Of a stretch of 64,000 nt of DNA, positions 2,846 to 28,693 are shown one piece after another. The stretch is taken from the sequence record NZ_MK262712.1; one strand, written 5' to 3'. The position numbers and the translations under genes are program-made. The notes beneath the pieces are model-generated. The model saw only the letters and a list, made by a program, of their open reading frames with translations. It did no database searches and had not been told where the DNA came from. Every line of letters begins with the position of its first letter. Positions within the stretch are counted from its first letter, which is position 1. Origin of the DNA: a plasmid.

Positions 2846-2955
2846 AAATCCCCCATTTTTTACAGTGTTGTTTATAAATAATAGCGCACGTTAAAAAGTT
2901 ACTTTTTAGGAGTAGGAATGCTCGATATTGTGAAAGTGGAAGTGTGATTCCTTAC

Positions 2956-3450
2956 TTAATTATTCGCTTTTCGCCATTGACGTGGTTCTATAGCGTGCGG
3001 ATCAGACCACAGACCTTTCCCTTCATTTCGAGCGTTTTGTTCAAGAGGCCCATATTCAGGAACAATCAACCTCCCCTGATACCGATATGCCCAGGCCATA
3101 CCGTTTGCGACCATGATGGCGTTAACATCGTTGTTGTTAAGATAGATTGTGCCAAGCATACGACCATAGACGTCCTGCCCATGGTCCTGAATACTAACAA
3201 CCTGATTTGCTACTAACTGAATCATTGCTTGCTTTGCTTTCTGTCCGAAGGCTTGCTTACTTTCAGGAGCATCAATCCCATAGAGCCGTATTCTTGTATT
3301 TGTTGCACCGTCATAAGCCTGGACTGTATCACCATCAATAACTCGCACTACTTTCGCCGAGAAAGTTTTGGCAATAGAAGTTAATGGGGAATATAAAAGG
3401 ATAACAGCCAGTGGAAAAATGGCTAATCTAGTTGACCGGATGTTTATCAT
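2956..3450 (-). CDS. secreted thermonuclease (SNase-like) family nuclease
   Basis: Signal-peptide-like N-terminus MINIRSTRLAIFPLAVILLYSPL. SNase motifs VIDGDT...RLYGIDAPE are present. Start set at the internal Met at 3450. Confidence 0.6.
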   Translation of the reverse strand: MINIRSTRLAIFPLAVILLYSPLTSIAKTFSAKVVRVIDGDTVQAYDGATNTRIRLYGIDAPESKQAFGQKAKQAMIQLVANQVVSIQDHGQDVYGRMLGTIYLNNNDVNAIMVANGMAWAYRYQGRLIVPEYGPLEQNARNEGKGLWSDPHAIEPRQWRKANN

Positions 3451-3632
3451 TGGTTGTCTCTGGATGATAATCATTAAATGTGATTTGAGGGGGAAATCAC
3501 AACGATTTTGAAAAGTTACTTTCAAAGTATAGGTTACTTTATTAACAACATGCTATTGTGTCAATGTATATGAAAATTATTACCTGAGGTGAATGAAAAC
3601 GCATCTCGGCTCAGATCAATTAAGGGGGGCTT

Positions 3633-4904
3633 ATGTCTACTGTTAATGATGTGATTGTATCTTATGGGGGTGACAGTAAAAGGTATTCAAGAGACTTCCA
3701 GACAAAAGAAGAATTTAAAAAGAGTTGGTACGCCGTTTTGTCCCGGGCGCATGCTTCGGTAGAAGCGAAGGTAAGCTGTGCCTGTAAAGGAAAAGGACAA
3801 AAATCACTTGCCGTAAAATATCACTCAGGCGGTGATACTTATTTCCTGGCGCGGTACCCGAATACAGGTAGTCAACATTCACCTGACTGTATTTTCTTTA
3901 CACTTGATAAAGACAATTCAGGTCTAAAATGCTATACACAAGGTGTCGTCAAAGACCTTAAAGATGGAGGCTACGGAATTAGGTTAGACGTGGCATTAGC
4001 CTCATCTGACTCGGAGTCGACCTCGATCGTACCGATAGATAACAGGAATAAATCAGGTGGTGTTTCTCAGAATAGCATGTCATTGCTGGGTCTTCTCCAG
4101 TTCCTGTGGGATGACAGCGGTCTGAATCGTTGGTATCCGAAAATGGCCGGGAAACGTAATCCTGGCAAGGTGTTCAACCTTATAACCCACTCTGCGGAAA
4201 AAATTAAAGTCGCATCACATCCGCTGTCCATGCATTTACTTGCAGGTGCATATCCTTCGACACCTCAAGAGACAAAAAACATAAAAATGACATCAGAGGC
4301 GCTGATGAATAAAGAGCGTCTGATTTGCCTCAATGTACTATCTAAATATAACCCTGAAAGACACTCGAATGCATCAAAACGACTTCCGATAAAGTTTTTT
4401 TCAGGTGTTCCAGTTGTGCTGATGAATACTGAGAATTGGGCATCACTGGAGAAGAGATTCAGCTCTGAAATAGCAAACTGGCGTTCAGGAGGTAACGTAA
4501 TCTGTATGGCTATAGGTGATCTGGGTAAATTTAAGGGGAAAGATACATACTATCTTAAACCACTTCAGATAGCATTGATGAATGTTGATGAAAACTGGAT
4601 CCCGGCAGACTCGAGTTATGAGCTGACCATGCTAAATTATCTTCATAAGCATGAGCGGTCATTTATCAAACCCCTGAGATACGATGCTTCTAATAATGAT
4701 GTTTTCCCAGATTTTTGTCTGACGGATATTGGGGGGCATGAACTATTTCCTATTGAGGTATTTGGTATGGATACTGCTTCATATTTGGCGCGTAAGGCGA
4801 TCAAAGAAAGTTACTATAATGAACGATATGGAAAGGATGGTTGGGCATCATGGGTTGCCCCGGCTGGCCCCCTACCCCATTTGCCCGATAAGGGCTGCAG
4901 TTAA
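3633..4904 (+). CDS. hypothetical protein (423 aa)
   Basis: Long intact ORF in the AT-rich island. Cys-containing N-terminal segment (CACKGKGQ...HSPDC). No confident domain call. Confidence 0.45.
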   Translation: MSTVNDVIVSYGGDSKRYSRDFQTKEEFKKSWYAVLSRAHASVEAKVSCACKGKGQKSLAVKYHSGGDTYFLARYPNTGSQHSPDCIFFTLDKDNSGLKCYTQGVVKDLKDGGYGIRLDVALASSDSESTSIVPIDNRNKSGGVSQNSMSLLGLLQFLWDDSGLNRWYPKMAGKRNPGKVFNLITHSAEKIKVASHPLSMHLLAGAYPSTPQETKNIKMTSEALMNKERLICLNVLSKYNPERHSNASKRLPIKFFSGVPVVLMNTENWASLEKRFSSEIANWRSGGNVICMAIGDLGKFKGKDTYYLKPLQIALMNVDENWIPADSSYELTMLNYLHKHERSFIKPLRYDASNNDVFPDFCLTDIGGHELFPIEVFGMDTASYLARKAIKESYYNERYGKDGWASWVAPAGPLPHLPDKGCS

Positions 4905-5896
4905 CGCCAAAATGCTTCAGTAAGGGCTTCGGCCCTATTATAACTATCAGCACTTTTCTGGCATAAAAGGCTTCAGCCCTGTTGTACTTCATCCTGCGAT
5001 TTCAATTTTGATCAATTAACCGGCCAGAAATCATACGAAATTTTCTTTTCGTCGCCGTGCGCTACGTGAAATCTGACGTACTCACCCCTCCGTTTTTCTT
5101 CAGATTTCGCGTAGCGCAACCTGAACAAAAACCACTAGAAAAGTAACTTTTGGACTGATTTAGAAGCTGGTTACCCCCACCTCGGGTGATAACATTAATC
5201 TAACACATGGAATAAAGGGTATTATTCTAACTGTAAATAGGATGTTGCATACCTCTTGAAGCGATGGAAAAATGAGCACACTTCTGGTTATTCCTGAATT
5301 CATGCTTTTTGTTGGTTTTTATATCGACATATTGAAACCTTGTTTTATTTAAAAGGCATCAATTTTATAATCAATTTCTGTTATTTTATCGCTATTGACA
5401 TTTACCATTGTGACTATATCCAATGATATTAAATCACTTACATCTAAAAGTGACGGTGTCACGTATTGTGCGCCCAGAGAGACCCTTTTCGTGAAAAAAG
5501 TAGTTCACTCCCATAACGAAATGTGGGCTTCTTTATTGCAGATCGTATGTGGATGTCTTCAGGTAGCAGGAAGGAAAGTGATGCAGGCATGAAAGGATGA
5601 CAAACCGGCAAAGGGGCTGCTACTGCTCCGTATTCAACAAACCACCCCTGGTTAGTTGAATCCTTTGCCGGTTTTACTGACAATACCAGACAGGTAAACT
5701 TTTTCCATCAGATTTTCTCGTCAACATGTTGCATTCATAGTTTTTCCATAATTGGATGCTTTTGCAGGACAACTACGGTTTTTATCCTTTCGTGTCCGGT
5801 AAAAAAAATTGTTAAATAGCGATTTCACCCTTTTAAAGGAAAAATTGTCCTCAGGCTCACAGTACTATAAAAGTATCAATAATCAGGAGCCTTACT

Positions 5897-6499
5897 ATGA
5901 CTATCATGAAAGTTCATTATTCACCAACTGACGGGATCCCTTTGCACTCCCTTTATCTGAAGGAAACTTCAACTACTGAACGATCAGGTTCAGTACTGGG
6001 GGGCGGCATTTCGGGAGACTCTGTTATTCTGGGAGGCGGAGGTTATGCCGGTTCGGAAATGCAGAAGACGACTCGTTCTACTGTCTTTGCACCACCTGAT
6101 GAAGTTACTGCTGAGCCTGACAACACAAAAATGGTCCTCCGGATTTCCTGTGTTATCGGTGTAATGTTTTTACTTATAATTATTACCTTATTCAGTAATG
6201 CTGTTGTTGATATTTTTGACGTAAACGTATCTAAAACAATGTCTTCTTTCCTGGAACATGCTCCCTTCTTTATCATTGGACTATCTGTCATTTGTGCTTT
6301 CTTTGTTATAGGAATGACCGATCATGATTACACCCCGGTACTTGAAGAGCATAAAAGGAATGAAGCGCGTTTGTCTGTATACCACAGGCTACGCTATGTC
6401 GAAGCTGATAATATTGTTTTTGATCCGCAATCAATGAAAGGATGTTATGCAGAAAGAAAATTCATTGCTTCACTAGTTGAAAGCTGTATCACTAAGTAA
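5897..6499 (+). CDS. hypothetical membrane protein (Gly-rich N-terminus, two predicted TM segments)
   Basis: GGGISGDSVILGGGGYAGS segment followed by two hydrophobic helices. Confidence 0.4.
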   Translation: MTIMKVHYSPTDGIPLHSLYLKETSTTERSGSVLGGGISGDSVILGGGGYAGSEMQKTTRSTVFAPPDEVTAEPDNTKMVLRISCVIGVMFLLIIITLFSNAVVDIFDVNVSKTMSSFLEHAPFFIIGLSVICAFFVIGMTDHDYTPVLEEHKRNEARLSVYHRLRYVEADNIVFDPQSMKGCYAERKFIASLVESCITK

Positions 6500-6758
6500 T
6501 ATCCCTGATTTCCTTTACTAAGCCTTTCATGTAAGGCTTAGTAATTGCTTTAACCCTCCCTTTGCTCACTGTTTTTATATGCTTCCGGTTTATGGGTGTG
6601 CTAAAAGTTGCTTTCTCATGTTTGAAGTTGACTCCGAAAAATATTAAATGTTTTTGAATATTATTCATAAGCACTATTATATAAATAGGTACTAGCAAGT
6701 GAAATAATTACTGATAATATGTCTTTATGTGCTTCCTATTCTCTAAGGATGGTAATTA

Positions 6759-7490
6759 ATGATATCTTCCACGCTTGTCCCGATTAACCCTTTCCAGCGA
6801 TGTGCAATGGCTTCTATTGCTTCTGTGGAGAATCGCAGAGCTTTGGGACGGAAAACAGGAGAACTGGCCTACGTCAAAGCCTTTTTTAAAGAACTTACAG
6901 GTAAATCGCAAATTAGCTCGAATGACTTGAGAAAGGTTGATTCGAGTTACGATCCATTTGTTCGTGGCGAAGCAACTAAAGTTGAATACCTGCGTGCTAT
7001 CGATATTCTGATTGAATCTCGTGGAGAGTGTTTTATTCTCCCTCTTTCCTGGTCTCTGGCAGTTTCCATGTTCCCGGAGTTACAGAACAGGGTTTTTCAG
7101 CGCCGCGAACACCGTGACCGGATTCATGATCAAAGGGCGGAGCGCCTGACAAAGAAAGAATCTAACCTATTGAAATATCAACTTGAAATTAACGTTGCAA
7201 AATCCAGGCTTTACTTGTCTTTCTGTGTTCCAGGTCAACATAAACGCTGGTTAGAAGAGTGGCGAAACGATACCCATGGACAAGGACTTACAACTAATCA
7301 TATTTACCTGCTGATTAAGGAATGGTGGTCATCATTCTGGATAACTTCATACAGAAAGGACTATATTTGGTGTTACACACTGGCTGAATTGCTGGACGAG
7401 ATTGATTATGTTCTTAGCACTATTACAATTATGGAGTTTAACGTCTGTTTTTCAGCGCTACCATTATCTCTTATATATAAAACTGGATAG
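6759..7490 (+). CDS. hypothetical protein (243 aa)
   Basis: Intact ORF co-oriented with its neighbours. No recognised motif. Confidence 0.4.
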   Translation: MISSTLVPINPFQRCAMASIASVENRRALGRKTGELAYVKAFFKELTGKSQISSNDLRKVDSSYDPFVRGEATKVEYLRAIDILIESRGECFILPLSWSLAVSMFPELQNRVFQRREHRDRIHDQRAERLTKKESNLLKYQLEINVAKSRLYLSFCVPGQHKRWLEEWRNDTHGQGLTTNHIYLLIKEWWSSFWITSYRKDYIWCYTLAELLDEIDYVLSTITIMEFNVCFSALPLSLIYKTG

Positions 7491-7723
7491 AATACAAAGC
7501 TTCAATCAGAAAAACTAAATTTTGCAAGCCCAATATTTCTCACTGTTTTCAAGGGTTTTTTTGTACCATTTAAGGGGGTGGTTATTATTATCCAGAATTT
7601 ATGAATCTGACCTTAATTATTATTGCTTCCGGTGGAAATACCCCCTTGATGAGCCGGTTTGGTTTAGTATGATGGTCTTATTCATAATCGATCGTAATCT
7701 TCTAAACAGATATGAGGTTTATC

Positions 7724-8482
7724 ATGGCTGACTATTATTCAGAATGTGCTTGCCTTATCGAAGCAAATCCTACTCAAGCTGATATATTACTTGAGGCAAT
7801 GAATGAATTGTTTGAACCGGATGATAGTTTTATTCAAAAACTAATTTCATGTGATAACACAAACGGCCTGTCAGAAATGGAGATTATTGTACGTCACTGT
7901 GTCCTGAACCATCCATTCAGAAATGTTGCAGATATTCCTGAAGACCTGGACTGGCATTTTGATGGGGAAAAATGCCCAGAAGGTTTTCTTATTAACAGTG
8001 ATCTCGGTGATTTCAATTCTGAACATGGTGCGCTGTTTGCTCAGGCGGCACTTATTGCATTTGACAGGAACGAATTGATAGAGTTCAAAATTGCTTTTAC
8101 ATGCAGTAACTTAAAAAGGCCTGACGGGTTTGGAGGCGCTGCCTGTGTCGTGAGCAAGGATTTCATCCGGTGGACAGGTCTACACAATTTTCTGGAGGCT
8201 GAACGAACCGCTTTCGCCGAGAAGATGAATTACTTCTTTTGTGAATTTACAGAGGTCGTCGGTGAGCTTGAATATCCAGTATCGTTTATATTGCGTTGCC
8301 CGAACAGCGTTAATGCAGCGCATAGGTATGATGAGATTCAGCTTAACTATCGCGATGGTGGGGAAAAAGATGCCGAAGGAGGGATACAATTTAGTTCTGG
8401 CTCTGCCATCAAAAAATCCAGTATGAAACCAATCACTCCTGATGAGTTCCGGGTGATGAAATCGTACCTGAACGTCATGTGA
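7724..8482 (+). CDS. hypothetical protein (252 aa)
   Basis: Intact ORF. Start set at the MADYY Met, which is preceded by GAGG. Confidence 0.4.
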   Translation: MADYYSECACLIEANPTQADILLEAMNELFEPDDSFIQKLISCDNTNGLSEMEIIVRHCVLNHPFRNVADIPEDLDWHFDGEKCPEGFLINSDLGDFNSEHGALFAQAALIAFDRNELIEFKIAFTCSNLKRPDGFGGAACVVSKDFIRWTGLHNFLEAERTAFAEKMNYFFCEFTEVVGELEYPVSFILRCPNSVNAAHRYDEIQLNYRDGGEKDAEGGIQFSSGSAIKKSSMKPITPDEFRVMKSYLNVM

Positions 8483-8547
8483 TTTTCTTTGGTCCGGGCA
8501 TTCTCCCTCCACTCTTCTGTACTGATCTGTCTATTTTGTGAGGCATT

Positions 8548-8937
8548 ATGACAAAGCAAATATTACCCAATGAACTGGCTGAAATCGTAACCGGTCTTCT
8601 TATTAAACCTGAACTGCTGGGTGAACTTGACTCCCGTGAGGCGCACCAGGCCTTCATGCTGGATATAGGGCGGGTAATTGCTGATCACTGTGGTGGACGG
8701 GTCAACGGCATTACGGATGGCGATGTCGCAAAGCCCTATCTTTCAGACATAGAGTGTACCCCCACACTCCACATTGAACCCGATGATCGTCTGCCTTCGA
8801 CTGAACGTAACGTATGGTCAAATTATCATGTTGAAGCCTGGGCAGACGAGGGACAGGAAACTATCCTCGACAGGGCGATCCGAAACTCTGACAGAGCTGC
8901 CCTGCAATCTCTGCTTATTGTGGCCGCACAAAAATAA
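8548..8937 (+). CDS. hypothetical protein (129 aa)
   Basis: Intact ORF with no motif. Confidence 0.35.
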   Translation: MTKQILPNELAEIVTGLLIKPELLGELDSREAHQAFMLDIGRVIADHCGGRVNGITDGDVAKPYLSDIECTPTLHIEPDDRLPSTERNVWSNYHVEAWADEGQETILDRAIRNSDRAALQSLLIVAAQK

Positions 8938-8964
8938 TCTGTCGGTGCTCCTGTTATTAAACGA

Positions 8965-9294
8965 ATGACGGACTGGCGTATCCCTGAAGGTGAACCGGTT
9001 TGCCATGAAGCGGATAGCAGAATTTATACGGCCACCTACCATCTGGATAACCAGACCTCAATCGAGGTGGCGGACGATACAGGTCAGCTTTGCTTAGGTG
9101 TATTACCGGAAATCAATCATGGCGTGCCTGCACTACATCTGAATGTGTCGGGTGGGGATAAGCTTCTCCACGTACATGCTGCACAAGGTGGACTTGTCCT
9201 GACACCAGACAGTTCCGGGGTACGGTTTCAGGGTGCTGAATGTGACAGGTATGCTTACAGAGATCAGAACTCATTACTTGTGAAGGAACAGTAA
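8965..9294 (+). CDS. hypothetical protein (109 aa)
   Basis: Intact ORF with no motif. Confidence 0.3.
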   Translation: MTDWRIPEGEPVCHEADSRIYTATYHLDNQTSIEVADDTGQLCLGVLPEINHGVPALHLNVSGGDKLLHVHAAQGGLVLTPDSSGVRFQGAECDRYAYRDQNSLLVKEQ

Positions 9295-9521
9295 TATACT
9301 GCCCTCCGCCGATCCAGAGTATGGGGTTACCGCATCAGATTTTACTGAGCACACAATCACGAAAAAGTTACTTTTTTCTCAGGAGGTGCCTGGACCCCTG
9401 CCCTTCATTTTGACGCGAGCAGGATGTTAGCACCTCACGTGCAGTTACTGTTATTCGCGTCCTGGTGGTATAGTGCAGCGGCTGGCAGAAGTAACCTACT
9501 ATCCAACGGAATAAGATCACG

Positions 9522-10169
9522 ATGAACGTCATTCAGCCCCGCATGCTTTCTGTATTTGATTTTGACGGTACGTTAACGCGGCATGATAGCTTTATCCCTT
9601 TTCTGCGGTTTGCCTTTGGCAATCGGGCGTTTTCGCGACGTATCGTCAGCATGGCTCTACCCACGTTACGCTGTATGGGTAAGCAGATGACGCGTGATGA
9701 GCTAAAAGAAACGCTCATTACAACTTTTCTTACTGGTGTTGAGGAAAAGTGGGTGTCTTCTAAAGCAGAGGAATTCTGTCAGCTCTACTGGCATCGCCTC
9801 ATGCGCCCGGCAGGTTTGATTGCTGTGGCGAATGAAGTCACTTCCGGCGCGATCGTCACCTTATGTTCTGCGTCGCCGGAAATTGTACTCAGACCCTTTG
9901 CCGAAAAACTTAGGATCAAACTGATTGGTACACAATTAGAGACAAAAGACGGCATTCTGACTGGCAGAATCAGTGGCCATAATTGCAGGTGCTCACAGAA
10001 AATTATCCGGCTTGAAAAAGAATATGGACCTCTGACTGACTATCATCTTCGGGCATGGGGTGATACGCGGGGTGATTATGAACTCCTTTCCGCAGCGACT
10101 GAGCCTCACTGGCGTCACTTCCATCAAGGTTTCCGTCGTAAACTTCCGTCGAAGCTAATCATCAGATAA
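9522..10169 (+). CDS. HAD-superfamily (HAD-IB/PSP-like) hydrolase
   Basis: HAD motif I FDFDGTLT near the N-terminus. Size and layout fit HAD phosphatases. The gene is convergent with terF. Confidence 0.65.
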   Translation: MNVIQPRMLSVFDFDGTLTRHDSFIPFLRFAFGNRAFSRRIVSMALPTLRCMGKQMTRDELKETLITTFLTGVEEKWVSSKAEEFCQLYWHRLMRPAGLIAVANEVTSGAIVTLCSASPEIVLRPFAEKLRIKLIGTQLETKDGILTGRISGHNCRCSQKIIRLEKEYGPLTDYHLRAWGDTRGDYELLSAATEPHWRHFHQGFRRKLPSKLIIR

Positions 10170-10505
10170 AAATTGCCCTTTATCGTTCTGTAATTTCTTC
10201 TTTACATAAAGGCAACATATATTCTACATTTAACCACTGTAACTGGTCAAAAAAAGAGTGCATCCTGGTAAATCGGTAGCTCGGACTATTAGGTATGCTT
10301 CAACCTGTTACCATTGGAATACCTACTTTCAGCCCGCTTTTCCGAGCGGGTTTTTTTCATCCCTGCCGATGTGTTCCTGGGTATAAATTACTGGGTGAAG
10401 TTGGGTTTCAGCGATCACATCTGCATATAGCCCTGTTTAGCTCTGCGTACTTTGAAAAGATGTCGTCATGGCAGCAGGCCTATCGCCCCTTACCGGGGCG
10501 ATGGG

Positions 10506-11747: not shown

Positions 11748-11790
11748 TTAGGCTCCTTGTTGCCGGGTAAAGGGATCACTCAGCGGGTAG

Positions 11791-11813: not shown

Positions 11814-11831
11814 TTTGGTTTTACTGGTTTA

Positions 11832-12407: not shown

Positions 12408-12493
12408 TTTTTGCTCCTGCTAATCGTAGATATCGGGTCGTGGATATCGGGGGCATCACCCCCGAATGATTTGGGTAAGAAAGTTACTTTTTA

Positions 12494-14151: not shown

Positions 14152-14174
14152 ATCGTACCTTTATCCGTTGTTTA

Positions 14175-14630
14175 TCAGAGGCCAAATTCAGCCGGGTCGA
14201 AACCCAGCGAACGGGCAATTTCACGGACAGCACTCTTCTCATCATCATCGAAGTTGCCATCACTTTTAGCGACAGCAATACCGACACGAAGAGCCAGTTG
14301 AGCTGCCTCTGGCTGGTCTTTCAGGGCGAGGATATATTTCATCGTTTCGCCTTTTCCGATTTCCAGATCAAAGTCGAAACTGGTCACCAGCTTGTTAAAA
14401 AATTCGATAACTTCTGCTGTATCGAAGACTTTCAGCTCTTCTGAGGATCGCAGAAATCCAATCATCTTCTGTTTTTCTTCGGAGCTAACGCCGTCACTGG
14501 CAACAGCGATACGGGCGCATACCGCGACGGTACCCTGCATAAATTTCTTGTTTTTGTAACGGCCTACCTGGCGGGTCAATTCCTCACGACCCGAGGTCAA
14601 AGCCCCTTTGACTTTGTCGAAAAAACTCAT
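14175..14630 (-). CDS. terB: tellurite resistance protein TerB
   Basis: 151 aa from MSFFDKVKGALTSG. The upstream in-frame extension in the ORF track was ignored. Confidence 0.85.
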   Translation of the reverse strand: MSFFDKVKGALTSGREELTRQVGRYKNKKFMQGTVAVCARIAVASDGVSSEEKQKMIGFLRSSEELKVFDTAEVIEFFNKLVTSFDFDLEIGKGETMKYILALKDQPEAAQLALRVGIAVAKSDGNFDDDEKSAVREIARSLGFDPAEFGL

Positions 14631-16696: not shown

Positions 16697-17755
16697 ATGA
16701 AAAAGAAAATTTGGTTTATGGAAGGGCTATCTTCCCAGCGAGACATTATCCTTGGAGTGAAATCATTTGCGGAAAAGGAAAATCAGGATATTGAAATCTT
16801 TTCTTCTCATCGCAACGAGAGGAAAGAGATCTTGTCTGTTTCCGATTTTTCAATGATCGAACCTAACAACGAAGAAGAACGTCTTTCTTTTATTCATTCC
16901 ATTACTGACACTCATGGTATTAATGCGATACATACTGGTCGCAACTGTAAATGGTTTGAAAGCCACCGGGAAAACATTCAACGTTCTGGTGTCCACCTGA
17001 CTACCGGGTCAACGGGGACTCACTGGTTTGAATTAGCCGATGAAAAAGTTACTTTTTCCGAGTTTATGGAAAAAAATGGACTTCCGGTTGTCCCGTCGGT
17101 TCGGGTAAAAAATGTAGACGAGCTTCGTACTCTGCTGAGTCATCCCCCTTTCCCTTCTGATTGCCTCTGCATTAAACCTGTTACAGGCATTTATGGCATG
17201 GGATTCTGGCGTTTTGATGACAATGTTTCCCCGGTAGCTTTTCTCAACAATCCTGATAGCCGTGTTATCCACCCATCACAGTTTCTGGCTGCTCATGCCC
17301 GGATGGACTGCTTTACTCCACAAGTACTGATGCCCTATTTACCCGGACCAGAATACTCTGTGGATATGGTGGTAAGTCAAGGCACGGTCCTGGCCGCTAT
17401 CGGGCGGCGTAAAGAAGGTGTGCTTCAGTATCTGGAAAATGAAGGGGAAGCGATTGAACTTGCCATCAACTGCGCCCGCCTAATGAACGCAGACGGCATG
17501 GTCAATGTACAGACTCGCCATAATGCCGAAGGCAAACCGCTATTGCTGGAAATTAACATGCGGCCTTCAGGAGGTATTGGTTATACGCGGTACAGTGGCG
17601 TGAATCTTCCGGGTCTGTATGCCTTCCATACACTTGGGCTGATGGATGATGATCAGGTCAGGCAGTCAGCGAAAACTGATTTTTCACCTGCAGTCGTCCG
17701 CTCTGTCACCGATGTCATTCTCTATCCGGCATCATTGACCAACAGAATTGATTAA
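16697..17755 (+). CDS. ATP-grasp domain protein (ter-linked biosynthetic module)
   Basis: 352 aa, divergent from terZ. ATP-grasp-like C-terminal region (LLEINMRPSGG). Gene context matches the ter-associated cluster. Confidence 0.6.
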   Translation: MKKKIWFMEGLSSQRDIILGVKSFAEKENQDIEIFSSHRNERKEILSVSDFSMIEPNNEEERLSFIHSITDTHGINAIHTGRNCKWFESHRENIQRSGVHLTTGSTGTHWFELADEKVTFSEFMEKNGLPVVPSVRVKNVDELRTLLSHPPFPSDCLCIKPVTGIYGMGFWRFDDNVSPVAFLNNPDSRVIHPSQFLAAHARMDCFTPQVLMPYLPGPEYSVDMVVSQGTVLAAIGRRKEGVLQYLENEGEAIELAINCARLMNADGMVNVQTRHNAEGKPLLLEINMRPSGGIGYTRYSGVNLPGLYAFHTLGLMDDDQVRQSAKTDFSPAVVRSVTDVILYPASLTNRID

Positions 17756-19675: not shown

Positions 19676-19676
19676 G

Positions 19677-20756
19677 ATGTCGCATTTTGCCCCGTTTTCT
19701 GGTTCCTATAAACCGGACGATGTTCACTTTTTGCTGAAACCCATTGTCATGGAGATGACACCGGTTGACCTGAAGGAAGAACTGATACAGTCAGGAAAAA
19801 TGCATTATTCCGACATGTTAAGCCAGGAACCAGAGCCGACCCGCTGGCACCTGGATCTTTTCACCCGTGCGCTTGACTCGGGAGCTGCACGTCTGGCACG
19901 GGAAGTCTCTCATCTTGCTCGTGAACTGGCCCGTCGTGCTGGCGATGAACCCATTGTCCTGGTCAGCCTGGTCAGGGCTGGTGTTCCACTGGGGGTCATG
20001 CTGCATCAGGCTCTGCGTGCGATGGGAAAACAGTCTTTCCACTACGGGATCAGCATTATCCGCGACAGGGGTATTGATGCTGCGGCGCTTGATTTTATCG
20101 AATCACGCCATGGTACTGATGGCATAGTGTTTGTCGACGGCTGGACGGGAAAAGGAGCTATTACCGGCGAATTATCCCGCACACTGAAGGACCGTCCCGG
20201 TTATCCGGAGCAGCCTCGACTGGTTGTGCTGGCTGACCCCTGCGGATGTGCCTGGCTTGCTGCCAGTGACGATGACTGGCTTATCCCGTTCGGTATCATG
20301 GGCGCGCCTGTCTCGGGTCTGATTTCGCGCTCTGTCTGGGCCGAAGAAGGCCTGCATGGCTGTGTGGTTTGCGATCACCTTCAGTCTTTTGAATGCAGCC
20401 AGATGCTGGTGGATACGGTAGCACATTTCCGTGAACAGCTTGACGGTAAACCCCTTCCCGCTTCTGGCTGGGACGCAGGGAAAAATGCCGCACGCTGGCA
20501 GCTGAGCAGAAAAGTTATCCAGAGCCTTGCTGCGCGTTATGAGGTGGACAGCATTAACCGCATTAAGCCGGGTATCGCTGAAGCGACGCGGGCGGTTCTG
20601 CGTCGTGTACCTGATCATGTTTTTGTTCGCCAGATGGATGACCCGGATGTTTCTCTTCTGGTTGGGCTGGCAAAAGAGAAAGGTATCCAGGTGACGGAAG
20701 CCGGGGATACGCTCGGTCAGTATCGTGCGGTTACCATTATCAAAAAGGTACGCTGA
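19677..20756 (+). CDS. second PRTase-like / StiP-type protein (ter-linked)
   Basis: Degenerate PRTase motif GIVFVDGWTGKGAITG. Start at ATG 19677, two bases after the upstream stop. Confidence 0.5.
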   Translation: MSHFAPFSGSYKPDDVHFLLKPIVMEMTPVDLKEELIQSGKMHYSDMLSQEPEPTRWHLDLFTRALDSGAARLAREVSHLARELARRAGDEPIVLVSLVRAGVPLGVMLHQALRAMGKQSFHYGISIIRDRGIDAAALDFIESRHGTDGIVFVDGWTGKGAITGELSRTLKDRPGYPEQPRLVVLADPCGCAWLAASDDDWLIPFGIMGAPVSGLISRSVWAEEGLHGCVVCDHLQSFECSQMLVDTVAHFREQLDGKPLPASGWDAGKNAARWQLSRKVIQSLAARYEVDSINRIKPGIAEATRAVLRRVPDHVFVRQMDDPDVSLLVGLAKEKGIQVTEAGDTLGQYRAVTIIKKVR

Positions 20757-21712: not shown

Positions 21713-21722
21713 GGAAGCATAT

Positions 21723-22945
21723 ATGGGATTCAGATTTCGTAAATCGATCAGCATTATCCCGGGGGTCAGGGTTAACCTGAGTAACGGGGCCCCAGTCTGA
21801 GTATTGGCCCCCGTGGAGCTTCGCTGTCAGTGGGAAAGAATGGAACGTTTGCCAACCTGGGCCTTCCCGGAACGGGACTGAGTTACCGCACCCGGATTGA
21901 CAGAACAGCACGGGAAAGAGTGAATACCAGGCATCAGGCAGATCCCGGTCTGAGGTCTGAACTGGAGCTGGTGGTGGAAAAACTGATGTCCACCGTAACA
22001 GCGATAACCAATATCCATGAACTCTCCCCTTCCCCAAAGGGAGGGAATACCTGGGCCACGCTCGAGACACAGTACCTGGCGCTCCGTCAGGGCAGTTTCA
22101 CTCTTCCTGCGCCGGTACGACCAAACAAACCTGAATATATACCTCTTCCACCAGAACCTGATGAGCATGCCGGTCGCGGTTTCCTTGGGGGATGGCTTGA
22201 ATCTGATGCAGCCCGACAGGAGCGACAGAACGAAAATCTTCGGCGGTGGCAGACGTCCGTCGCTGATATTGAACGTGAAAATGCGTTGCTGAAACAGCGT
22301 TATGAGAAACAGCGTATAGCGTGGGCTGAGCAGTACGCAGAATGGCAGCATCAGTACCAGGAGCATGAAAAAAATCGCACGGAGTCTGTAGCTTTAGCGA
22401 AAGAGCAATTCCGATCTGACGCCCGCTTCTTTGAACATTGTCTTGAGGAAGTTTTCTCGCAAACAGAATGGCCGCGAGAAACACTGGTGTCGTTTGAGGT
22501 ACGGCCTGAAGAATCAACAGTCTGGCTTGATGTTGATTTACCTGAGATTGAGGATATGCCTGATAAAGTGTATAGCGTGAATGCCCGGGGAACTGATATC
22601 AATGAAAAAGCCATGACACAGAAAGCGGTCCGGGAAAGTTACGCTAAACACGTTCACGGATGCCTGCTGAGATTAGCAGCAATCGTTTTTCAGACGCTTC
22701 CGTTTGAACAGGCCGTCATTTCAGGCTTCACTCAGCGGGTGAGTAAACGCACTGGATATCTTGAAGATGAGTACATTATCTCCTGGCGGGTACGCCGCTC
22801 TGAAATCGAGCTAATCAACTTCGGGAATCTGCGAGGCGTTGACCCTATTGAAGCATTGGGTGATCGAGGTCTGATCAGGAAAATGAGTTCAACTTACATT
22901 TTTCAGCCTATAGAACCACTGACCCAGATGGCAGGTACCGACTGA
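21723..22945 (+). pseudogene. DUF4236-like protein gene interrupted by a -1 frameshift near 21793
   Basis: MGFRFRKSISIIPGVRVNLSNGAP stops at TGA 21798. The +1 frame continues with SLSIGPRGASLSVGKNGTF..., which is the rest of the DUF4236 N-terminal signature. A single missing base in CCA(A)GTCTG would restore the frame. Confidence 0.5.
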
Positions 22946-22947
22946 AT

Positions 22948-23406
22948 ATGCAATTAAACACCAGACAGGAAAGAGTTTACACCCTGGCTAACATACTTGG
23001 CTCAGGGAAGCCTGTATCGGCGCAATCCATCACCGCGACGCTGGCCTGTTCTGAGCCGACACTAAGCCGGGCGCTTAAAGAGCTGAGGGAAACTTACGCT
23101 GCTGAAATTAAATACAGTAAGGCTGGCCACTCCTATCAGATGGTACACTCCGGGTTACTGGATAAGAAAACACTAAAGAGAATGAGTGAGGCACTGGACC
23201 TTAATTCTGATTTAAAAACACATGACCAGGGGGCACGGGTGGTACTGGATAAGGATATAAAAACTTCCGTTTCCCTGTCGATAAGACGCCGTGTTCTTCG
23301 CAAAATTGACAAACTGGCTGCGCTAAGCGGTACATCAAGAAGCGAGGCAGTAGAAAAATTAGTAGAGTTAAAAATTGATGAAATTATCAATGAAATGAAG
23401 AAATAG
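22948..23406 (+). CDS. terW: TerW-like DNA-binding regulator (wHTH + RHH-like C-terminus)
   Basis: 152 aa. N-terminal winged-helix-like segment and a C-terminal ribbon-helix-helix-like segment (SVSLSIRRRVLRKIDKLAA). Size and position between the ter-linked module and terY/terX fit TerW. Confidence 0.5.
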   Translation: MQLNTRQERVYTLANILGSGKPVSAQSITATLACSEPTLSRALKELRETYAAEIKYSKAGHSYQMVHSGLLDKKTLKRMSEALDLNSDLKTHDQGARVVLDKDIKTSVSLSIRRRVLRKIDKLAALSGTSRSEAVEKLVELKIDEIINEMKK

Positions 23407-23884
23407 CAGAATATTAGTGGGGTGGTTGTTCTCACTCCACTAATCGGCAATCTTTACCATTTTCCCAACATGTGTTTATTGTATAACTACAGATAAAAAG
23501 CAAATTAATAAAATAAAGATTCTTAATTCATAAATAATCCCTGTGTTTTATTTTATTAGTTTTCTTTTAACTGACCATCGTCGCCGTATTATTAAATGCA
23601 AAAACGTTAAACCATATTTTATATAGATTATGACCTGTCCAGTTTCCCGGCGACGGGTTATCAATATGGCGAATGCCTACTAATAATGGCGGGGATCGTA
23701 TTGTTGAAATATTGAAAATTTGTAATGTTGCTCAACCAACTCGCGCGTTTGAAACAACGTGAAAATCTCACTTTGTGATTGCTGAACTAACTATATGGCT
23801 TTTTTTTAGTAGTATGATATGAAGTGTTTATAAAACCATGTTCAGGAAATGAGCTCCCCCATCAACCATTAAGGAAAGTTTAAG

Positions 23885-24522
23885 ATGAGAAGACTTCCCG
23901 TCTATCTGCTTCTCGATACATCAGGTTCAATGCACGGAGAGCCTATAGAGGCAGTTAAAAATGGTGTCCAGACACTACTGACCACCCTGAAGCAGGATCC
24001 TTATGCACTGGAAACTGCATATGTCTCTGTCATTACTTTCGACTCTACTGCTCGTCAGGCCGTACCTCTTACAGATCTCCTCAGTTTCAATCTCCCCTCT
24101 TTTTCGGCAAGCGGAACTACCGCACTGGGCGAAGCCTTATCCCTGACTGCAAACCGAATTGATGCAGAAGTTCAGAAAACGACAGCGGAGACAAAAGGCG
24201 ACTGGCGTCCACTCGTTTTCCTGATGACGGATGGTGGCCCTACGGATGACTGGCGTAAAGGACTTAATGAATTCAAAGCAGCCAAAAAAGGGTAGTTGTC
24301 GCATGTGCTGCCGGGCATGATGCAGATACGGATGTGCTTAAGGAGATCACCGAGATTGTTCTCCAGCTGGACACTGCCGACAGCTCTTCCATCAAAGCTT
24401 TTTTCAAATGGGTGTCTGCCAGTGTTTCCGTAGGTAGCCAGAAAGTCGATGCCGGTAAAAAAGAAGTTATCGGTCTTGATGATTTGCCTCCACCGCCGCC
24501 AGAAGTAAACGTGGTTTTATAA
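23885..24522 (+). pseudogene. terY: terY-like vWA gene (copy 1) with frameshift in an A6G3 tract
   Basis: N-terminal 136 aa vWA (MRRLPVYLLLDTSGSM) ends at TAG 24293. The +1 frame continues into ...FFKWVSASVSVG...LPPPPPEVNVVL, colinear with the intact paralog at 25189..25827. One extra G after A6 G3 (24284-24292) would restore the frame. Confidence 0.6.
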
Positions 24523-24546
24523 GCAATTAACTTAAGAGAGGATCCT

Positions 24547-25188
24547 ATGACTGTCAGCTTACGGAAAGGGCAAGGCGTCAGCCTGCGTAAAAATGAGTTC
24601 GATCTTTCCTCAGTCACGATAGGTCTTGGCTGGGACATCAATGAAGAGAAAAAAGGGTTCCTGGGCGGAATTTTTGGCAAAAAAGAGGAGGAGTATGACC
24701 TCGATGTTATTGCCTTTCTCTGCAACGCAGCCGGTAAAGTGACTGATCTTGGCAATGTTGAAAATGGTAAGCCGACACTGGTTAACGGCGATATCGTCTT
24801 CTTCAACAGTCTTCGCCATAAATCAGGGCAGATCTGGTTGACCGGCGATAACCGGACAGGTGCCGGTGACGGAGACGATGAGCAAATTATCGTAAAACTA
24901 AACAGCATCGATCCGAAGTACGAAAAAATTGTCTTTATTGTTCAGATCTACAACGGCGAAAAATTACAGCAGCACTTTGGAAAAGTGCAAAATGCATTTA
25001 TCCGGGCGGTAGACGGAAAAAATGTGGAAATGGCACGCTTTGACCTCTCCGGCGGTGTAGCCTTTAATGGTCAGCGATCGATGGTCTTTGCTGAGCTTGT
25101 CCGGGAATCCAGTGGCTGGAAACTGAATGCGATAGGCGAGCCTTCCACCTCCGATTCGTTCGTAAGCCATCTGAGGAACTATATCTAA
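24547..25188 (+). CDS. terX: TerX (TerD-family protein)
   Basis: 213 aa with TerD-family signatures (GDNRTGAGDGDDEQ; GWKLNAIGE). Confidence 0.75.
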   Translation: MTVSLRKGQGVSLRKNEFDLSSVTIGLGWDINEEKKGFLGGIFGKKEEEYDLDVIAFLCNAAGKVTDLGNVENGKPTLVNGDIVFFNSLRHKSGQIWLTGDNRTGAGDGDDEQIIVKLNSIDPKYEKIVFIVQIYNGEKLQQHFGKVQNAFIRAVDGKNVEMARFDLSGGVAFNGQRSMVFAELVRESSGWKLNAIGEPSTSDSFVSHLRNYI

Positions 25189-25827
25189 ATGCGAAGACTA
25201 CCCGTATATCTGCTCATCGATACTTCCGGCTCAATGAGAGGAGAATCGATACATTCAGTGAATGTGGGTGTGCAGGCTATGCTGAGCGCCCTGAGACAGG
25301 ACCCTTATGCGCTTGAAAGCGTCCATATCTCAATAATTACATACGATAATGAAGCCCGGGAGTATGTTCCCCTCACTGCCCTGGCTGACTTTCAGTTTTC
25401 TGATATAGAAGTACCAAGTGCGGGCGGCACCTTTACCGGCGCGGCGCTTGAATGTCTGATCCAGTGTGTCGACCGGGATATTCGCCGCTCTGATGGTGAA
25501 CAGAAAGGCGACTGGAGACCGCTGGTGTTTCTGATGACAGATGGTACTCCGTCAGATGCCTGGGCTTATGGGGAAGCTGTTAAAGAGGTTCAGCGGCGTT
25601 CGTTTGGTTCCATTATAGCCTGTGCTGTTGGCCCTAAAGCGGGACACGAACATCTGAAACTACTTACTGACAAAGTTGTGGCTCTTGAAACACTGGATTC
25701 GACCGCATTTTCAGGCTTTTTCAAATGGGTCAGTGCCAGCGTGGCTTCAGGAAGCTCCAGTGCCGGAGTCACTACTGATTCGGACACACTTCCACCGCCA
25801 CCGCCAGAAATCCAGCTTGTTCTGTAA
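25189..25827 (+). CDS. terY: TerY (vWA domain protein)
   Basis: 212 aa. MIDAS motif LIDTSGSM. C-terminal FFKWVSASV...PPPPPE tail. ATG overlaps the terX stop. Confidence 0.75.
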   Translation: MRRLPVYLLIDTSGSMRGESIHSVNVGVQAMLSALRQDPYALESVHISIITYDNEAREYVPLTALADFQFSDIEVPSAGGTFTGAALECLIQCVDRDIRRSDGEQKGDWRPLVFLMTDGTPSDAWAYGEAVKEVQRRSFGSIIACAVGPKAGHEHLKLLTDKVVALETLDSTAFSGFFKWVSASVASGSSSAGVTTDSDTLPPPPPEIQLVL

Positions 25828-25904
25828 CTTACGCCGGTATGGCAGGGAATAACCCTGCCTTATACCGATAAAGTCCATCTCTGCTATGGACGTCACATTT
25901 TGCT

Positions 25905-26960
25905 ATGAGGGAGTTTCCTGTGAGACGACTTCCCGTTTTTTTTGTTCTGGACTGTTCTGAGTCCATGATTGGTGAAAACCTGAAAAGGATGAATGATGGC
26001 TTGCAGAAGATTGTGAGCGATCTGCGTAAGGACCCTCATGCTCTGGAGACTGTCTGGGTGTCAGTAATTGCCTTTGCCGGTATTGCCAGAACGATTGTCC
26101 CGTTACATGACATTGTGTCTTTTTATCCCCCTCGCCTTCCTGTCGGTGGAGGAACTAACCTCGCGACTGCCTTACGGGAACTGACAACACAAATAGATTC
26201 TCAGGTCCGAAAAACGACGCTGGAAGAAAAAGGTGACTGGAAGCCAGTTGTCTACTTACTTACTGACGGCCGACCGACAGATGACATTTCAGCTGAGGTT
26301 AAGCGCTGGAACGAATTTTACGCAAAAAAAGTGAATATGATTGCTGTGGGGATCGGACCATCAGTTGATCTCAGTGTACTCAGGCAACTGACTGAAAACG
26401 TCTTATCGTTTACCGAAAATCAGGAAGGCGATTTTTCGCGGTTTATCCAGTGGATCACAGCTTCAGTCACAGCTCACAGTCGTAGTGTTGGCGAGGATTC
26501 TCAGCCGCCCCTGAAACAAACTGACTATATCGTCAAACTTGCCAAAGATGACACAGCCCGTGCATACGACGAAAACTGTGTGGTATTAACCGGGCGTTGC
26601 AGTAAAACCCGTCGACCCTATCTGATTAAGTATGAGCGTCCGCCAGCCAGGGTATCGGGCCTCGCTTTCGATCTAAACCTTAACAGCTTTAACATTGCTG
26701 GTTGTTATCCTGTGGATGAAGATTACTTCTCATGGACGGATATGTCCGTAGCCGGGGCGCAGATAAACACCAGTGAACTCCATGGCGTACCAGGGTGCCC
26801 ACACTGCGGAAACAGTAGTGCTTTTGCGATGTGTACCTGCGGAAAACTTCTCTGTATTGATGGGCCTGATGATGTGAACTGCCCATGGTGTGGGAAAGGT
26901 TTGTCCTTTCAGAGCGAGGGTGGAAATTCAGATTTTAACGTTAGCAGAGGACGCGGCTAA
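25905..26960 (+). CDS. vWA domain protein with C-terminal zinc-ribbon (TerY-P triad member)
   Basis: vWA (VLDCSESM) plus a C-terminal CPHCG...CTCG...CPWCG zinc ribbon. Immediately upstream of the phosphatase and kinase genes. Confidence 0.7.
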   Translation: MREFPVRRLPVFFVLDCSESMIGENLKRMNDGLQKIVSDLRKDPHALETVWVSVIAFAGIARTIVPLHDIVSFYPPRLPVGGGTNLATALRELTTQIDSQVRKTTLEEKGDWKPVVYLLTDGRPTDDISAEVKRWNEFYAKKVNMIAVGIGPSVDLSVLRQLTENVLSFTENQEGDFSRFIQWITASVTAHSRSVGEDSQPPLKQTDYIVKLAKDDTARAYDENCVVLTGRCSKTRRPYLIKYERPPARVSGLAFDLNLNSFNIAGCYPVDEDYFSWTDMSVAGAQINTSELHGVPGCPHCGNSSAFAMCTCGKLLCIDGPDDVNCPWCGKGLSFQSEGGNSDFNVSRGRG

Positions 26961-28693
26961 TGAGCGAGTTCATTACACCTGAACATAAAATTATTGCTCT
27001 CATTCTGGAGGCATCAGGGGAACCGACTGATGCTGATAAAGTATTCTGTCTTGGTAACATACCTGATGTTGCCCTTGCTGTGCGGCAGCTGAGAGAAATG
27101 GTCATTCAACACTCTGCAAGCGAAGCCATACCGGCGGAGAACACTCAAACAGTTTCAGAATGTCTTACCCAGCCCTTTTCTGACAAAATCCTCCCACCTC
27201 AAAACTCGGGTGAAAGCGAAGCTGATCGACCTGAGATTGAACCCGTCCATGCCGCTACTGCACTTCAGGGAAATGATAAGCAGGAAGCGCATAGTGAAAT
27301 GGTGGATGATACAGCGTCAGAAGGCGTTCAGGGACACACTGAAGAAGTTCCTGATGCAACCGGGGTCTTACAGACCGAGGCTTCCGTCACGGCGCAACCA
27401 GAAGACATGGATAAAACCAGTCCGGTTGTTTCTGACAACCTTTCAGCTGACACCGCAGTCAGTGCTTTACGGCCCGGGGAAGTACCTCAGAGAGTGGAGA
27501 ATAAAACATCCCCTGCCCCCGGAAAAGTGCCGGAGGTGTTTATCATGCTGCCAAATGCACGGGCAGGTGAACCCTACGATGTTCGACTGGAAATAGCGAC
27601 CGATACAGGTGTTGAGGCAGAGATCACGGAGGTTAACTTCTCTCAGGACATAGGGCTGATATTTGATATCAATGAGCGACGCCTCCAGGGGACGCCAGGG
27701 CACAGCGGAGACTTTGAACTGACTGTGAAATGGTCATGCAGCTCACATCGTGATAATGAAAAAAAGTTACTTTTTGTCGTGAACCCTGATCCGAAAAGTC
27801 TCTGGAAAGTGATTGACCCGCCTTCTGATGCACCATTCTACAAGAAGAGTATCGACCACCAGAGTGTCTGTCGGTCAGGTATTCATATTGCCGGAGCAAG
27901 CCGTCGTGGACGCTCCCATGAACATGTAGGCTCTTTTCGTGACGACGATTATTACCTCAACTTCAGTGATGTATCCGGATGGAGTGTATTACTGGTAGCT
28001 GATGGCGCGGGGAGCGCTAAATATTCCCGGGAAGGCTCCCGTATCGTTTCTGAAACTGTTGGTAACTATCTCTTCAACCAGTTCAAGACTGAAAAAGGTC
28101 TTGAGATCAAAAACAGGGTCCTTCGCTGGAACAGTGAGGATCAGCGAGCAGTATGGGAGTTTATGAACCACCACTTCCGACAGGCAGCGGTACTGGCCGT
28201 AAACAATATCAGCAGTGCCGCAATTTTGGCTGAAGATAAAGTAAAGTCATTCTCAACGACTTTACTCGCGACCGTCACTTTTCGCGACGGTGCTGATCTT
28301 TTTGCCGCGTCTTTCTGGTTAGGTGACGGTGCGATAGCTGCATATGGACCTGCTGGCAAAGTCAGAGTGCTTGGGACTCCGGATAGCGGAGAGTATGCAG
28401 GTCAGACGCGTTTTCTGGATGCCGATGCCGTCAGTGATGCCGGATTCAGTAAACGTATCAGTATCGGTAAGTGGAACGACATATCGCATCTGGTTCTGAT
28501 GACGGATGGTGTTTCCGATCCCTGGTTTGAAACGGATAACGGGCTTCAGAATCCACAAAAATGGGACAGGCTGATGGCCGAGCTCTCTCCCCTACTCACA
28601 GACCCTGAACATGCCTCGGCACAACTGGTGGAGTGGCTTAACTTTTTCTCTCCGGGAAATCACGATGATCGCACAATCATTGTGCTCTGGTGA
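26960..28693 (+). CDS. PP2C-family Ser/Thr protein phosphatase (TerY-P triad)
   Basis: C-terminal PP2C-like core (LLVADGAGSAKYSREGS...LMTDGVSD). The N-terminal 200 aa is low-complexity and acidic. Confidence 0.65.
   Translation: MSEFITPEHKIIALILEASGEPTDADKVFCLGNIPDVALAVRQLREMVIQHSASEAIPAENTQTVSECLTQPFSDKILPPQNSGESEADRPEIEPVHAATALQGNDKQEAHSEMVDDTASEGVQGHTEEVPDATGVLQTEASVTAQPEDMDKTSPVVSDNLSADTAVSALRPGEVPQRVENKTSPAPGKVPEVFIMLPNARAGEPYDVRLEIATDTGVEAEITEVNFSQDIGLIFDINERRLQGTPGHSGDFELTVKWSCSSHRDNEKKLLFVVNPDPKSLWKVIDPPSDAPFYKKSIDHQSVCRSGIHIAGASRRGRSHEHVGSFRDDDYYLNFSDVSGWSVLLVADGAGSAKYSREGSRIVSETVGNYLFNQFKTEKGLEIKNRVLRWNSEDQRAVWEFMNHHFRQAAVLAVNNISSAAILAEDKVKSFSTTLLATVTFRDGADLFAASFWLGDGAIAAYGPAGKVRVLGTPDSGEYAGQTRFLDADAVSDAGFSKRISIGKWNDISHLVLMTDGVSDPWFETDNGLQNPQKWDRLMAELSPLLTDPEHASAQLVEWLNFFSPGNHDDRTIIVLW

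Follow-up and report, generated by a model that had tools for sequence, protein, structure and literature searches.

A dispersed, exactly conserved 13-bp palindrome of IncHI plasmid backbones and a candidate KorB/ParB-like binder

The window analysed here is a 64,000-nucleotide stretch of plasmid record NZ_MK262712.1, in which an earlier reading of the sequence (the original prediction) had pointed to a recurring near-palindromic motif. The motif, a 13-bp palindrome with the core AAAGT-N-ACTTT, is real, under strong selection and conserved across the IncHI superfamily of plasmids. It is almost certainly a specific protein-binding site. The binder that we favour, at a rough probability of 0.45, is an orphan KorB/ParB-like protein of the type of R0104 of plasmid R27, acting as a backbone-wide regulator. 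Both the binding of the motif by this protein and transcriptional control as its outcome are what we infer from sequence. No published description of the motif was found in the searchable literature, queried by the sequence and for IncHI regulators, R0104, and ParB-like or KorB-like proteins.

Over its first 25,000 bases, the window matched plasmid pSCKLB555-1 (NZ_CP043933.1) with 100% coverage and 100.0% identity, and the same 25 kb was ~100% identical to many Klebsiella plasmids of 250-320 kb. The window had been assigned to IncHI2; the typing of pSCKLB555-1 (IncFIB, IncHI1B, MOBH, MPF_F) places it in IncFIB/IncHI1B instead, although IncHI2 plasmids nevertheless carry the motif. The IncHI1B plasmid pSCKLB555-1, used as the reference, and the IncHI1 prototype R27 were compared in full, together with a 41-kb Tra1 segment of an IncHI2 plasmid. 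Lineages of Yersinia intermedia, Leclercia-type and Lelliottia were found through homologues of a plasmid protein.

A blind scan ranked every palindrome of the form 5-N(0-4)-5 against its third-order Markov expectation. AAAGT.ACTTT came first in the IncHI1B plasmid (84 copies against 0.56 expected), in R27 (46 against 0.44) and in the IncHI2 segment (14 against 0.11). It was again the top palindrome in the Yersinia intermedia, Leclercia-type and Lelliottia lineages, at 5-7 copies per 21 kb against 0.03-0.07 expected. Counting in the whole plasmid and its relatives thus extended the original observation, with 84, 46 and 14 exact cores where 0.1-0.6 were expected, and a frequency set by local k-mer composition does not account for such numbers in related plasmids. 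The longer spelling AAAAGTWACTTTT was present in 35 exact copies in the whole IncHI1B plasmid, with ~75 distinct sites at up to one mismatch. The palindrome ranked second in the scan is explained by a CRISPR array of NZ_CP043933.1 (60507-61539; 18 repeats of GTATTCCCCCCGyrTGCGGGGGTTATCGG with a 61-bp period), which lies beside Cas6 and helicase-like genes and is apparently part of a plasmid-borne CRISPR-Cas locus.

The claim that the motif is confined to the backbone and missing from the resistance region was borne out. No copies were identified in 172 kb of non-backbone or unrelated DNA, comprising the 44-kb resistance region of the reference plasmid, positions 38-64 kb of the window, an IncC segment, the Yersinia plasmid pVM82 and one unrelated metagenomic contig. 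The Tn10, cit/tcu and IS1/RepFIA segments, accessory parts of R27, had none, and a search at up to one mismatch found none in the window past 27775, which includes its resistance region. A scan of genome contigs for pairs of the motif showed, among the matches listed, mainly isolated pairs in AT-rich genomes and real enrichment only in Klebsiella grimontii contigs, a result that says little on taxonomic range.

The consensus is R-AAAGT-W-ACTTT-Y, the R and Y being usual at the flanks of the core. The consensus in R27 reaches GAAAAGTWACTTTTC. The arms had been described as AAAAGT/ACTTTT; a palindrome around a single central base was confirmed, with the shorter core AAAGT-N-ACTTT and outer bases that are usually R/Y. 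The central base is A or T in ~90% of copies, and C or G is also found. There was no conserved position past ~+/-7 from the centre across the 84 + 46 sites of the two full plasmids, and the TCAGGA or TAGGAG motif that had been noted behind some copies is not a general feature. The word is sharply defined: the IncHI1B plasmid has 84 exact cores against 28 for all 30 one-mismatch variants together (14 expected), a ratio of ~3:1, and R27 has 46 exact cores against 25 one-mismatch variants (1.8:1). This sharpness is the pattern of parS sites and KorB operators, not of ordinary transcription-factor sites.

The two binders named in the original prediction fared poorly. The preference of H-NS is for degenerate AT-rich DNA, and an exact word, at 84 exact copies to 28 with one mismatch, makes it unlikely. 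TerW was excluded, as R27 has no ter/terW genes yet carries 46 copies. Of the two proposed roles, a dispersed recognition site for a backbone-encoded protein is well supported by over-representation, confinement, intergenic enrichment and conservation at the DNA level, whereas an uptake-type sequence is not supported, a palindrome being typical of a dimeric protein site; we know of no use of uptake sequences by the hosts of these plasmids. Regular spacing of the copies was rejected because the inter-site gaps are random-like (coefficient of variation, CV, 1.0). The reading as an RNA hairpin or terminator was also dismissed, since the hairpin that the motif can form as RNA or single-stranded DNA (ssDNA) is worth ~-1.2 kcal/mol, not better than those of shuffles.

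Selection is indicated by sites shared by diverged plasmids. R27 and the IncHI1B plasmid have ~85 proteins in common, typically 25-65% identical, and nine orthologous sites are conserved between them, eight of which lie within genes in both plasmids. The sites belong to RSP (two), TrhU, TrhN, TrhI, Dcm, TrhH, the thermonuclease and HtdF. Each is identical at 10-11 of 11 bases, while the 90 flanking bases are 23-79% identical, and the synonymous positions of the K-V-T-F/L or K-L-L codons have all been retained. As the sites are unchanged at orthologous positions while their flanks diverge, selection must act on the DNA itself. A family of small repeats, which had been raised as a possible source of all copies, is not consistent with unrelated flanks and intragenic copies at orthologous codons.

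The copies are also placed non-randomly with respect to genes. In the IncHI1B plasmid 48 of the 84 copies are intergenic, when 23% of the backbone is intergenic (p=2e-11), and 22 of the 46 copies in R27 are intergenic (p=3e-5). Positional enrichment in promoters had been proposed as a check; the copies are enriched in intergenic DNA in both plasmids, and only weakly near the start codons of R27. Approximately ten IncHI1B copies lie 102-112 nt upstream of start codons, and about a dozen more within ~35 nt of a start. Clusters in this plasmid were found upstream of a ParB-like gene, in the mobI/oriT region, upstream of the pilin operon and beside the RepHI1B replicon.

Two further sequence features were noted. 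Three IncHI1B promoters (NZ_CP043933.1 37193, 43760 and 51298) share TTGATG/TTGCAG-N17-TATCCTGG or TAACCTGG, that is, TA(T/A)CCTGG, with the end of the motif 22-26 nt upstream of the first hexamer. A general longer promoter cassette was rejected, the element being common to these three IncHI1B promoters only. The oriT-side intergenic region of R27 between traH/mobI and trhR (record 108436-108566) holds four copies of AAAGTGACCCT, three direct (8436, 8478 and 8566, segment coordinates) and one inverted (8504). The AAAGTGAC half of the motif recurs in AAAGTGACCCT, which is perhaps a relaxosome-binding repeat in its own right.

In the window itself, an exact search for the 15-mer AAAAAGTTACTTTTT confirmed that four copies are identical over 15 nt (2893-2907, 9362-9376, 17043-17057 and 27761-27775), and no copies were present in 100 dinucleotide-preserving shuffles of the window. 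Allowing up to one mismatch to AAAAGTWACTTTT, seven sites were identified (starts 2894, 3511, 5139, 9363, 12479, 17044 and 27762) against 0.09 expected. The repeated motif was thus well founded, and is part of a larger phenomenon than had been claimed. All seven sites were where they had been reported, with three coordinates off by one base; the partial copy described near 37050, at the end of repA, amounts only to a non-significant half-site, AAAAAGTTAC. The sequences on either side of the seven copies are mutually unrelated, which indicates a short word and not a piece of a longer repeat. The copies and the genes around the first two are as follows.

2893..2907: copy 1, AAAAAGTTACTTTTT, exact match, between the thermonuclease-family and phospholipase-D-family genes
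3511..3523: copy 2, AAAAGTTACTTTC, in the stretch from which the thermonuclease gene (minus strand) and the DUF1173 gene (plus strand) diverge, ~110 nt upstream of the DUF1173 start
5139..5151: copy 3, AAAAGTAACTTTT, central A, in a ~1-kb unannotated gap from the DUF1173 end at 4904 to the next gene start at 5897
9362..9376: copy 4, AAAAAGTTACTTTTT, 146 nt upstream of a HAD-family hydrolase gene (9522-10169, plus strand)
12479..12491: copy 5, GAAAGTTACTTTT, in the terD-terE spacer, both genes on the minus strand
17043..17057: copy 6, AAAAAGTTACTTTTT, within the ATP-grasp gene of the ter cluster (16697-17755), where it reads E-K-V-T-F
27761..27775: copy 7, AAAAAGTTACTTTTT, within the PP2C phosphatase gene (26960-28693), in a different frame, where it reads K-K-L-L-F
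2027-2845, minus strand: phospholipase-D-family (PLD) gene, start codon 48 nt downstream of copy 1
2956-3450, minus strand: thermonuclease-family gene, from the annotation of the identical stretch in NZ_CP043933.1
3633-4904, plus strand: DUF1173 gene, window annotation via NZ_CP043933.1

The equivalent of copy 1 on the whole reference plasmid is site 109528, and the thermonuclease gene of R27 has a copy of the motif at its 5' end. The terD-terE spacer and ATP-grasp copies are kept in the window, in an IncHI2-type plasmid and in the chromosomal ter island of E. coli O157:H7 (~77% nucleotide identity). The copy in the PP2C gene is lineage-specific, with no conserved counterpart in the IncHI2-type ter region. 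In a Yersinia intermedia plasmid, two neighbouring TerD-family genes are separated by a spacer that contains a copy. The copies of the O157:H7 island, at 14623 (terD-terE spacer) and 19215 (ATP-grasp gene) in segment coordinates, look like a relic of an IncHI2-type origin of the island.

Several of the window copies have other signals close by. A near-consensus sigma-70-like promoter, TTGACA-17-TAAAGT, identified by consensus match only, lies on the minus strand at 3564-3536 and is directed into the thermonuclease gene. Copy 2 is just downstream of it, at the expected transcript start; such matches were no commoner than in shuffles. Copy 4 is followed (9377-9440) by a Shine-Dalgarno-like AGGAG and a 14-codon GTG-initiated open reading frame (ORF), and copy 1 by TAGGAG and a 9-codon ATG ORF. 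Either may be due to chance, and the other sites have no such feature in common with them.

The candidate binder was identified by the position of the motif relative to its gene. The coordinates of this gene in the two plasmids compared in full are given below.

92336-93541 of R27: candidate gene R0104
51419-52660 of IncHI1B pSCKLB555-1: candidate gene, WP_004197197.1, encoded outside the window

In the IncHI1B plasmid, six exact copies lie in the 750 bp directly upstream of the candidate gene, which is the densest cluster of the plasmid. R0104 of R27 has two copies upstream, the nearer at 95 nt, and the IncHI2 orthologue also has two. In 17 metagenomic loci and three further genomic lineages, every orthologue is preceded by one to six copies at a distance of 79-870 bp. 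This positional evidence covers IncHI1, IncHI2, IncHI1B, Yersinia, Leclercia-type and Lelliottia.

The candidate matched the 'ParB-like partition protein' family PHROG 1033 (E=1e-17 and 1e-23) and, over its helix-turn-helix (HTH) part, TIGR00180. Among PDB entries, a profile of three orthologues matched the Caulobacter ParB DNA-binding domain (E=3.5e-4). With 14 orthologues as its basis, an AlphaFold model was confident over residues 20-250 (predicted local distance difference test score, pLDDT, ~85-97). The structures closest to this model were RK2 KorB (8qa9, E=1e-7, template modelling (TM) score 0.65; also 8qa8), followed by Noc and ParB, with structural matches to the three ranging from E=1e-7 to 1e-5. 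The candidate is thus predicted to have a ParB/KorB-like fold. R0104 is annotated as ParB-like in a study of R27 deletions (PMC4853401, Table S2), and its expression is constitutive and fairly strong, at 2196 units at 25 C and 2155 units at 37 C, well above most backbone genes (PMC7366339, supplement).

A role in partition was considered for the candidate and for its sites. Inspection of the gene neighbourhoods found no parA adjacent to the candidate gene. R0104 falls in one of the R27 deletions, and deletion 16 alone destabilised R27 (PMC4853401); the deletion data fit a regulator better than a partition protein. A P1-type parA of the IncHI1B plasmid has 14 ACAAC-N3-GTTGT palindromes upstream, in a 2.9-kb unannotated stretch (NZ_CP043933.1 240169-241860). 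The unit of this array is approximately GTGAArACAACCCCGTTGTTCGCAG, and the array probably serves the Par1 module as its centromere. As the P1-type ParAB module has an array of its own, the motif is unlikely to be a partition centromere. The system may work like KorB, as a regulator, or like Noc, and not like a centromere.

In the mechanism that we propose, a dimeric DNA-binding protein of the IncHI backbone would use the motif as a high-specificity, operator- or parS-like site, and selection would keep binding sites at dozens of plasmid positions, between and within genes. By analogy with RK2 KorB and IncC ParB, the R0104-type protein would dock on the exact palindromes. The docked protein would silence or coordinate backbone genes, including those of transfer, the leading region, the nucleases and ter, among others. 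It might act by spreading or sliding from its sites, and it would autoregulate its own gene.

Several observations weigh against this proposal. There are two to three ParB-like paralogues per IncHI plasmid, and sequence alone cannot tell which of them, if any, binds. They begin at the following positions.

40890 of R27: ParB-like paralogue
45191 of R27: ParB-like paralogue R0042, very highly expressed
92336 of R27: ParB-like paralogue, the candidate R0104
234980 of the IncHI1B plasmid: ParB-like paralogue

The recognition helix of the candidate is only partly conserved (H186 and R188 being invariant), though the motif never changes. Similarly, the orthologues are 31-100% identical and the motif is invariant in all lineages, which leaves no contrast by which to follow co-variation. 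The arginine box reads R-Q-G-[A/H]-C-R-x-R-A in 14 of 14 orthologues, compared with the canonical GERRxRA; it keeps the G, the second R, the final R and the A, and loses the E and the first R. Given this variant box, CTP-dependent clamping by the R0104 family is uncertain. Copies are also found upstream of many other genes, and the spacing of the motif and a putative -10 element before the ParB-like gene shifts by 17 nt between lineages. The concentration near start codons in R27 is weak, at 1.2-fold for -130..+40 and 1.7-fold for -300..+40. Finally, the IncC homologue of the R0104 family (31% identical) differs from the protein that binds IncC parS.

In two more distant relatives (pVM82 and one other), no dispersed palindrome was found in the stretches examined. 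The distant ParB-like gene of pVM82 has TTTTCAA-type repeats upstream (19700-19830), including the palindrome TGTTTTCAATTTATAAATTGAAAACA, and no palindrome is dispersed over the 41 kb examined.

A somewhat unlikely alternative is that the motif is bound by another protein, such as an uncharacterised IncHI protein, R0042 or a host factor, with a chiefly architectural role. This role could be compaction, positioning, membrane tethering in transfer or protection after entry, as in Noc-NBS, SlmA-SBS and MatP-matS. The random intervals between copies (gap CV 1.0), the variable distances between motif and promoter, and the intragenic location of about half of the copies, which are conserved there, would all be consistent with architecture, as would the position of the R0104 gene among leading-region-type genes, e.g., hok, DUF957 and DUF905. 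No family can be recognised for most of the conserved small IncHI proteins, and the very high expression of R0042 adds to the case for another binder. However, no specific alternative protein is indicated, and both the intergenic enrichment and the cluster before the R0104-type gene are suggestive of regulation, with autoregulation as a part of it. Were the binder a host factor, one with so exact a 13-bp palindrome should have been described before now, and co-resident non-IncHI DNA lacks the motif.

It is quite unlikely that the motif is the cis-element of the IncHI conjugation circuit, in which TrhR/TrhY would bind it and activate tra and many backbone genes, counteracted by HtdA. The circuit is IncHI-specific, conserved in the group and in control of most backbone genes, with accessory inserts spared (PMC7366339). 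An htdA mutation of R27 derepresses 139 of 181 expressed genes and spares Tn10, cit, insertion sequence (IS) elements, mucAB and parAB (PMC7366339), a gene set that matches the backbone-only distribution of the motif. No DNA site of the circuit is named in the literature found on it. In R27 the H, AC and R operons are preceded by copies, and the IncHI1B copies 102-112 nt upstream of starts, three of them with a shared downstream element, would suit an activator.

The motif does not, however, follow the TrhR/TrhY dependence of promoters. The upstream regions of the TrhR/TrhY-dependent F and Z operons have no copies even at one mismatch, whereas the R operon, which is not regulated by HtdA, does have one. 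No homologue of R27 TrhY was detected by tblastn in the IncHI1B plasmid (best E=2.8), though a very divergent TrhY may exist there, and TrhR is ~29% identical, yet the motif has not changed. HtdA, an acidic protein (pI 4.6), is said to exert its effect on proteins. TrhR, TrhY and HtdA had no Pfam match and no informative PDB match; NCBIfam, Pfam and PDB searches of these three and ten other conserved small IncHI proteins returned nothing useful, and the AlphaFold model of TrhR was unusable (pLDDT 44). In addition, near all-or-none sharpness and conserved intragenic copies are unusual in activator sites.

Features of two R27 proteins were noted in passing. The C-terminus of TrhY (segment 9710-10222, plus strand) is a CxxC-N13-CxxC zinc ribbon that recalls FlhC-type activators, and the ORF at the equivalent position of the IncHI1B plasmid (segment 37940-38437) is unrelated to TrhY. 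The transfer protein HtdK of R27 (segment 16077-16640, minus strand) matches the Whirly ssDNA-binding family PF08536 with E=2.5e-5, just above the cut-off.

Readings without a sequence-specific binder (a target of methylation or restriction-modification, a Chi-like or other recombination signal, an uptake sequence, a hairpin or terminator, a mobile repeat, or a compositional accident) are most improbable: GTNAC at the centre of the motif, orphan methyltransferases encoded on the plasmids, and some copies 11-16 nt upstream of start codons or just past them speak for them, but 13 specified bases far exceed the length of methylation or restriction sites, which are usually avoided, whereas the motif is enriched 100-150-fold; miniature inverted-repeat transposable elements or repetitive extragenic palindromes do not fit flanks unrelated beyond +/-7 bp and copies in frame at orthologous codons of conserved genes; shuffles form hairpins as good as that of the motif; a palindrome lacks the polarity on which Chi-like or KOPS-like signals depend; and chance gives no copies in shuffles and 0.4-0.6 under the third-order Markov model.

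IncHI megaplasmids are major vehicles of multidrug resistance: in Salmonella, E. coli and Klebsiella, resistance genes such as NDM, mcr-1, tet(X4) and armA are spread by plasmids of the IncHI1, IncHI2 and IncHI1B/HI3 types. For some two thirds of IncHI genes no function is known, and the global regulation of these plasmids is only partly understood. An exact 13-bp word across the backbone predicts one master DNA-binding protein with a regulon of ~50-85 sites. It is rather doubtful, but would be of consequence, that this represents an undescribed plasmid-wide control layer, in which an orphan KorB/Noc-like protein loads at 50-85 exact palindromes over ~200 kb, conserved intragenic ones among them, and keeps nearly all of the backbone silent or organised. 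If true, no larger plasmid parS/operator regulon would be known, and the layer would supply the DNA-level component so far missing from accounts of the near-global derepression of the htdA mutant and of the temperature switch of IncHI transfer. The motif also points to a target for destabilising or silencing IncHI plasmids, e.g., by decoy sites that titrate the binder; SGI1 acts similarly on IncC plasmids via their parS sites. The motif is, moreover, a clean signature of IncHI-derived DNA, of which the ter island of E. coli O157:H7 retains two copies.

Among known systems, Noc-NBS of Bacillus and SlmA-SBS and MatP-matS of E. coli each consist of dozens of exact 12-14-bp palindromes, some of them intragenic, with one dedicated dimeric binder. 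Noc is a paralogue of ParB that has no ParA; likewise, the candidate lacks a ParA partner, and its model matches Noc structures. The chromosomal systems differ in that they control the division site or a macrodomain, whereas the IncHI motif has so far no link to membrane or division.

The closest structural relative of the candidate model, KorB of RK2, belongs to the ParB family, has an HTH in addition to an N-terminal CTPase-type domain, and acts as a global repressor and autoregulator (PMC11790492; PMC10954446). RK2 has 12 copies of a 13-bp palindrome, and KorB is a CTP-dependent sliding clamp that silences genes at a distance (PMC11790492). The RK2 operator OB (TTTAGCSGCTAAA) and the IncHI motif are alike in being 13-bp palindromes with a single central base, near-perfect dispersed copies and a variable promoter distance. 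The IncHI motif differs in its sequence, in its number (46-84 copies compared with 12) and in the location of about half of its copies within genes. The IncHI candidate, unlike its RK2 counterpart, has no parA/incC partner, its arginine box departs from GERRxRA, and no KorA-like partner was identified.

IncC plasmids provide the second comparison. They carry parS as 14 copies of an invariant palindrome, four of them in ORFs, most just upstream of genes and one in the promoter of the ParB operon, and a ParB with a KorB domain binds IncC parS, core TTTCACATGTGAAA, by electrophoretic mobility shift assay (PMC10954446). The same blind scan of the IncC plasmid pCF2206-2 returned seven perfect ACTTTCACATGTGAAAGT in 34 kb, mostly in spacers, which are the published parS sites. 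In coordinates of the pCF2206-2 segment they lie at 296, 3880, 4339, 9654, 12990, 24034 and 27449, one of them 63 bp upstream of parA. The outer pentamers of ACTTTCACATGTGAAAGT, ACTTT/AAAGT, are the IncHI half-sites in everted order; the IncC segment scanned contained no copies of AAAGTNACTTT. Both IncC and IncHI are large MOBH/MPF_F conjugative plasmids with dispersed palindromes, some within ORFs. The IncC sites resemble canonical parS and serve the parAB053 partition operon, whereas the P1-type ParAB of IncHI appears to have a separate repeat array. Next to these two systems, the IncHI motif resembles a further and far larger case of the KorB/parS design, built on another sequence.

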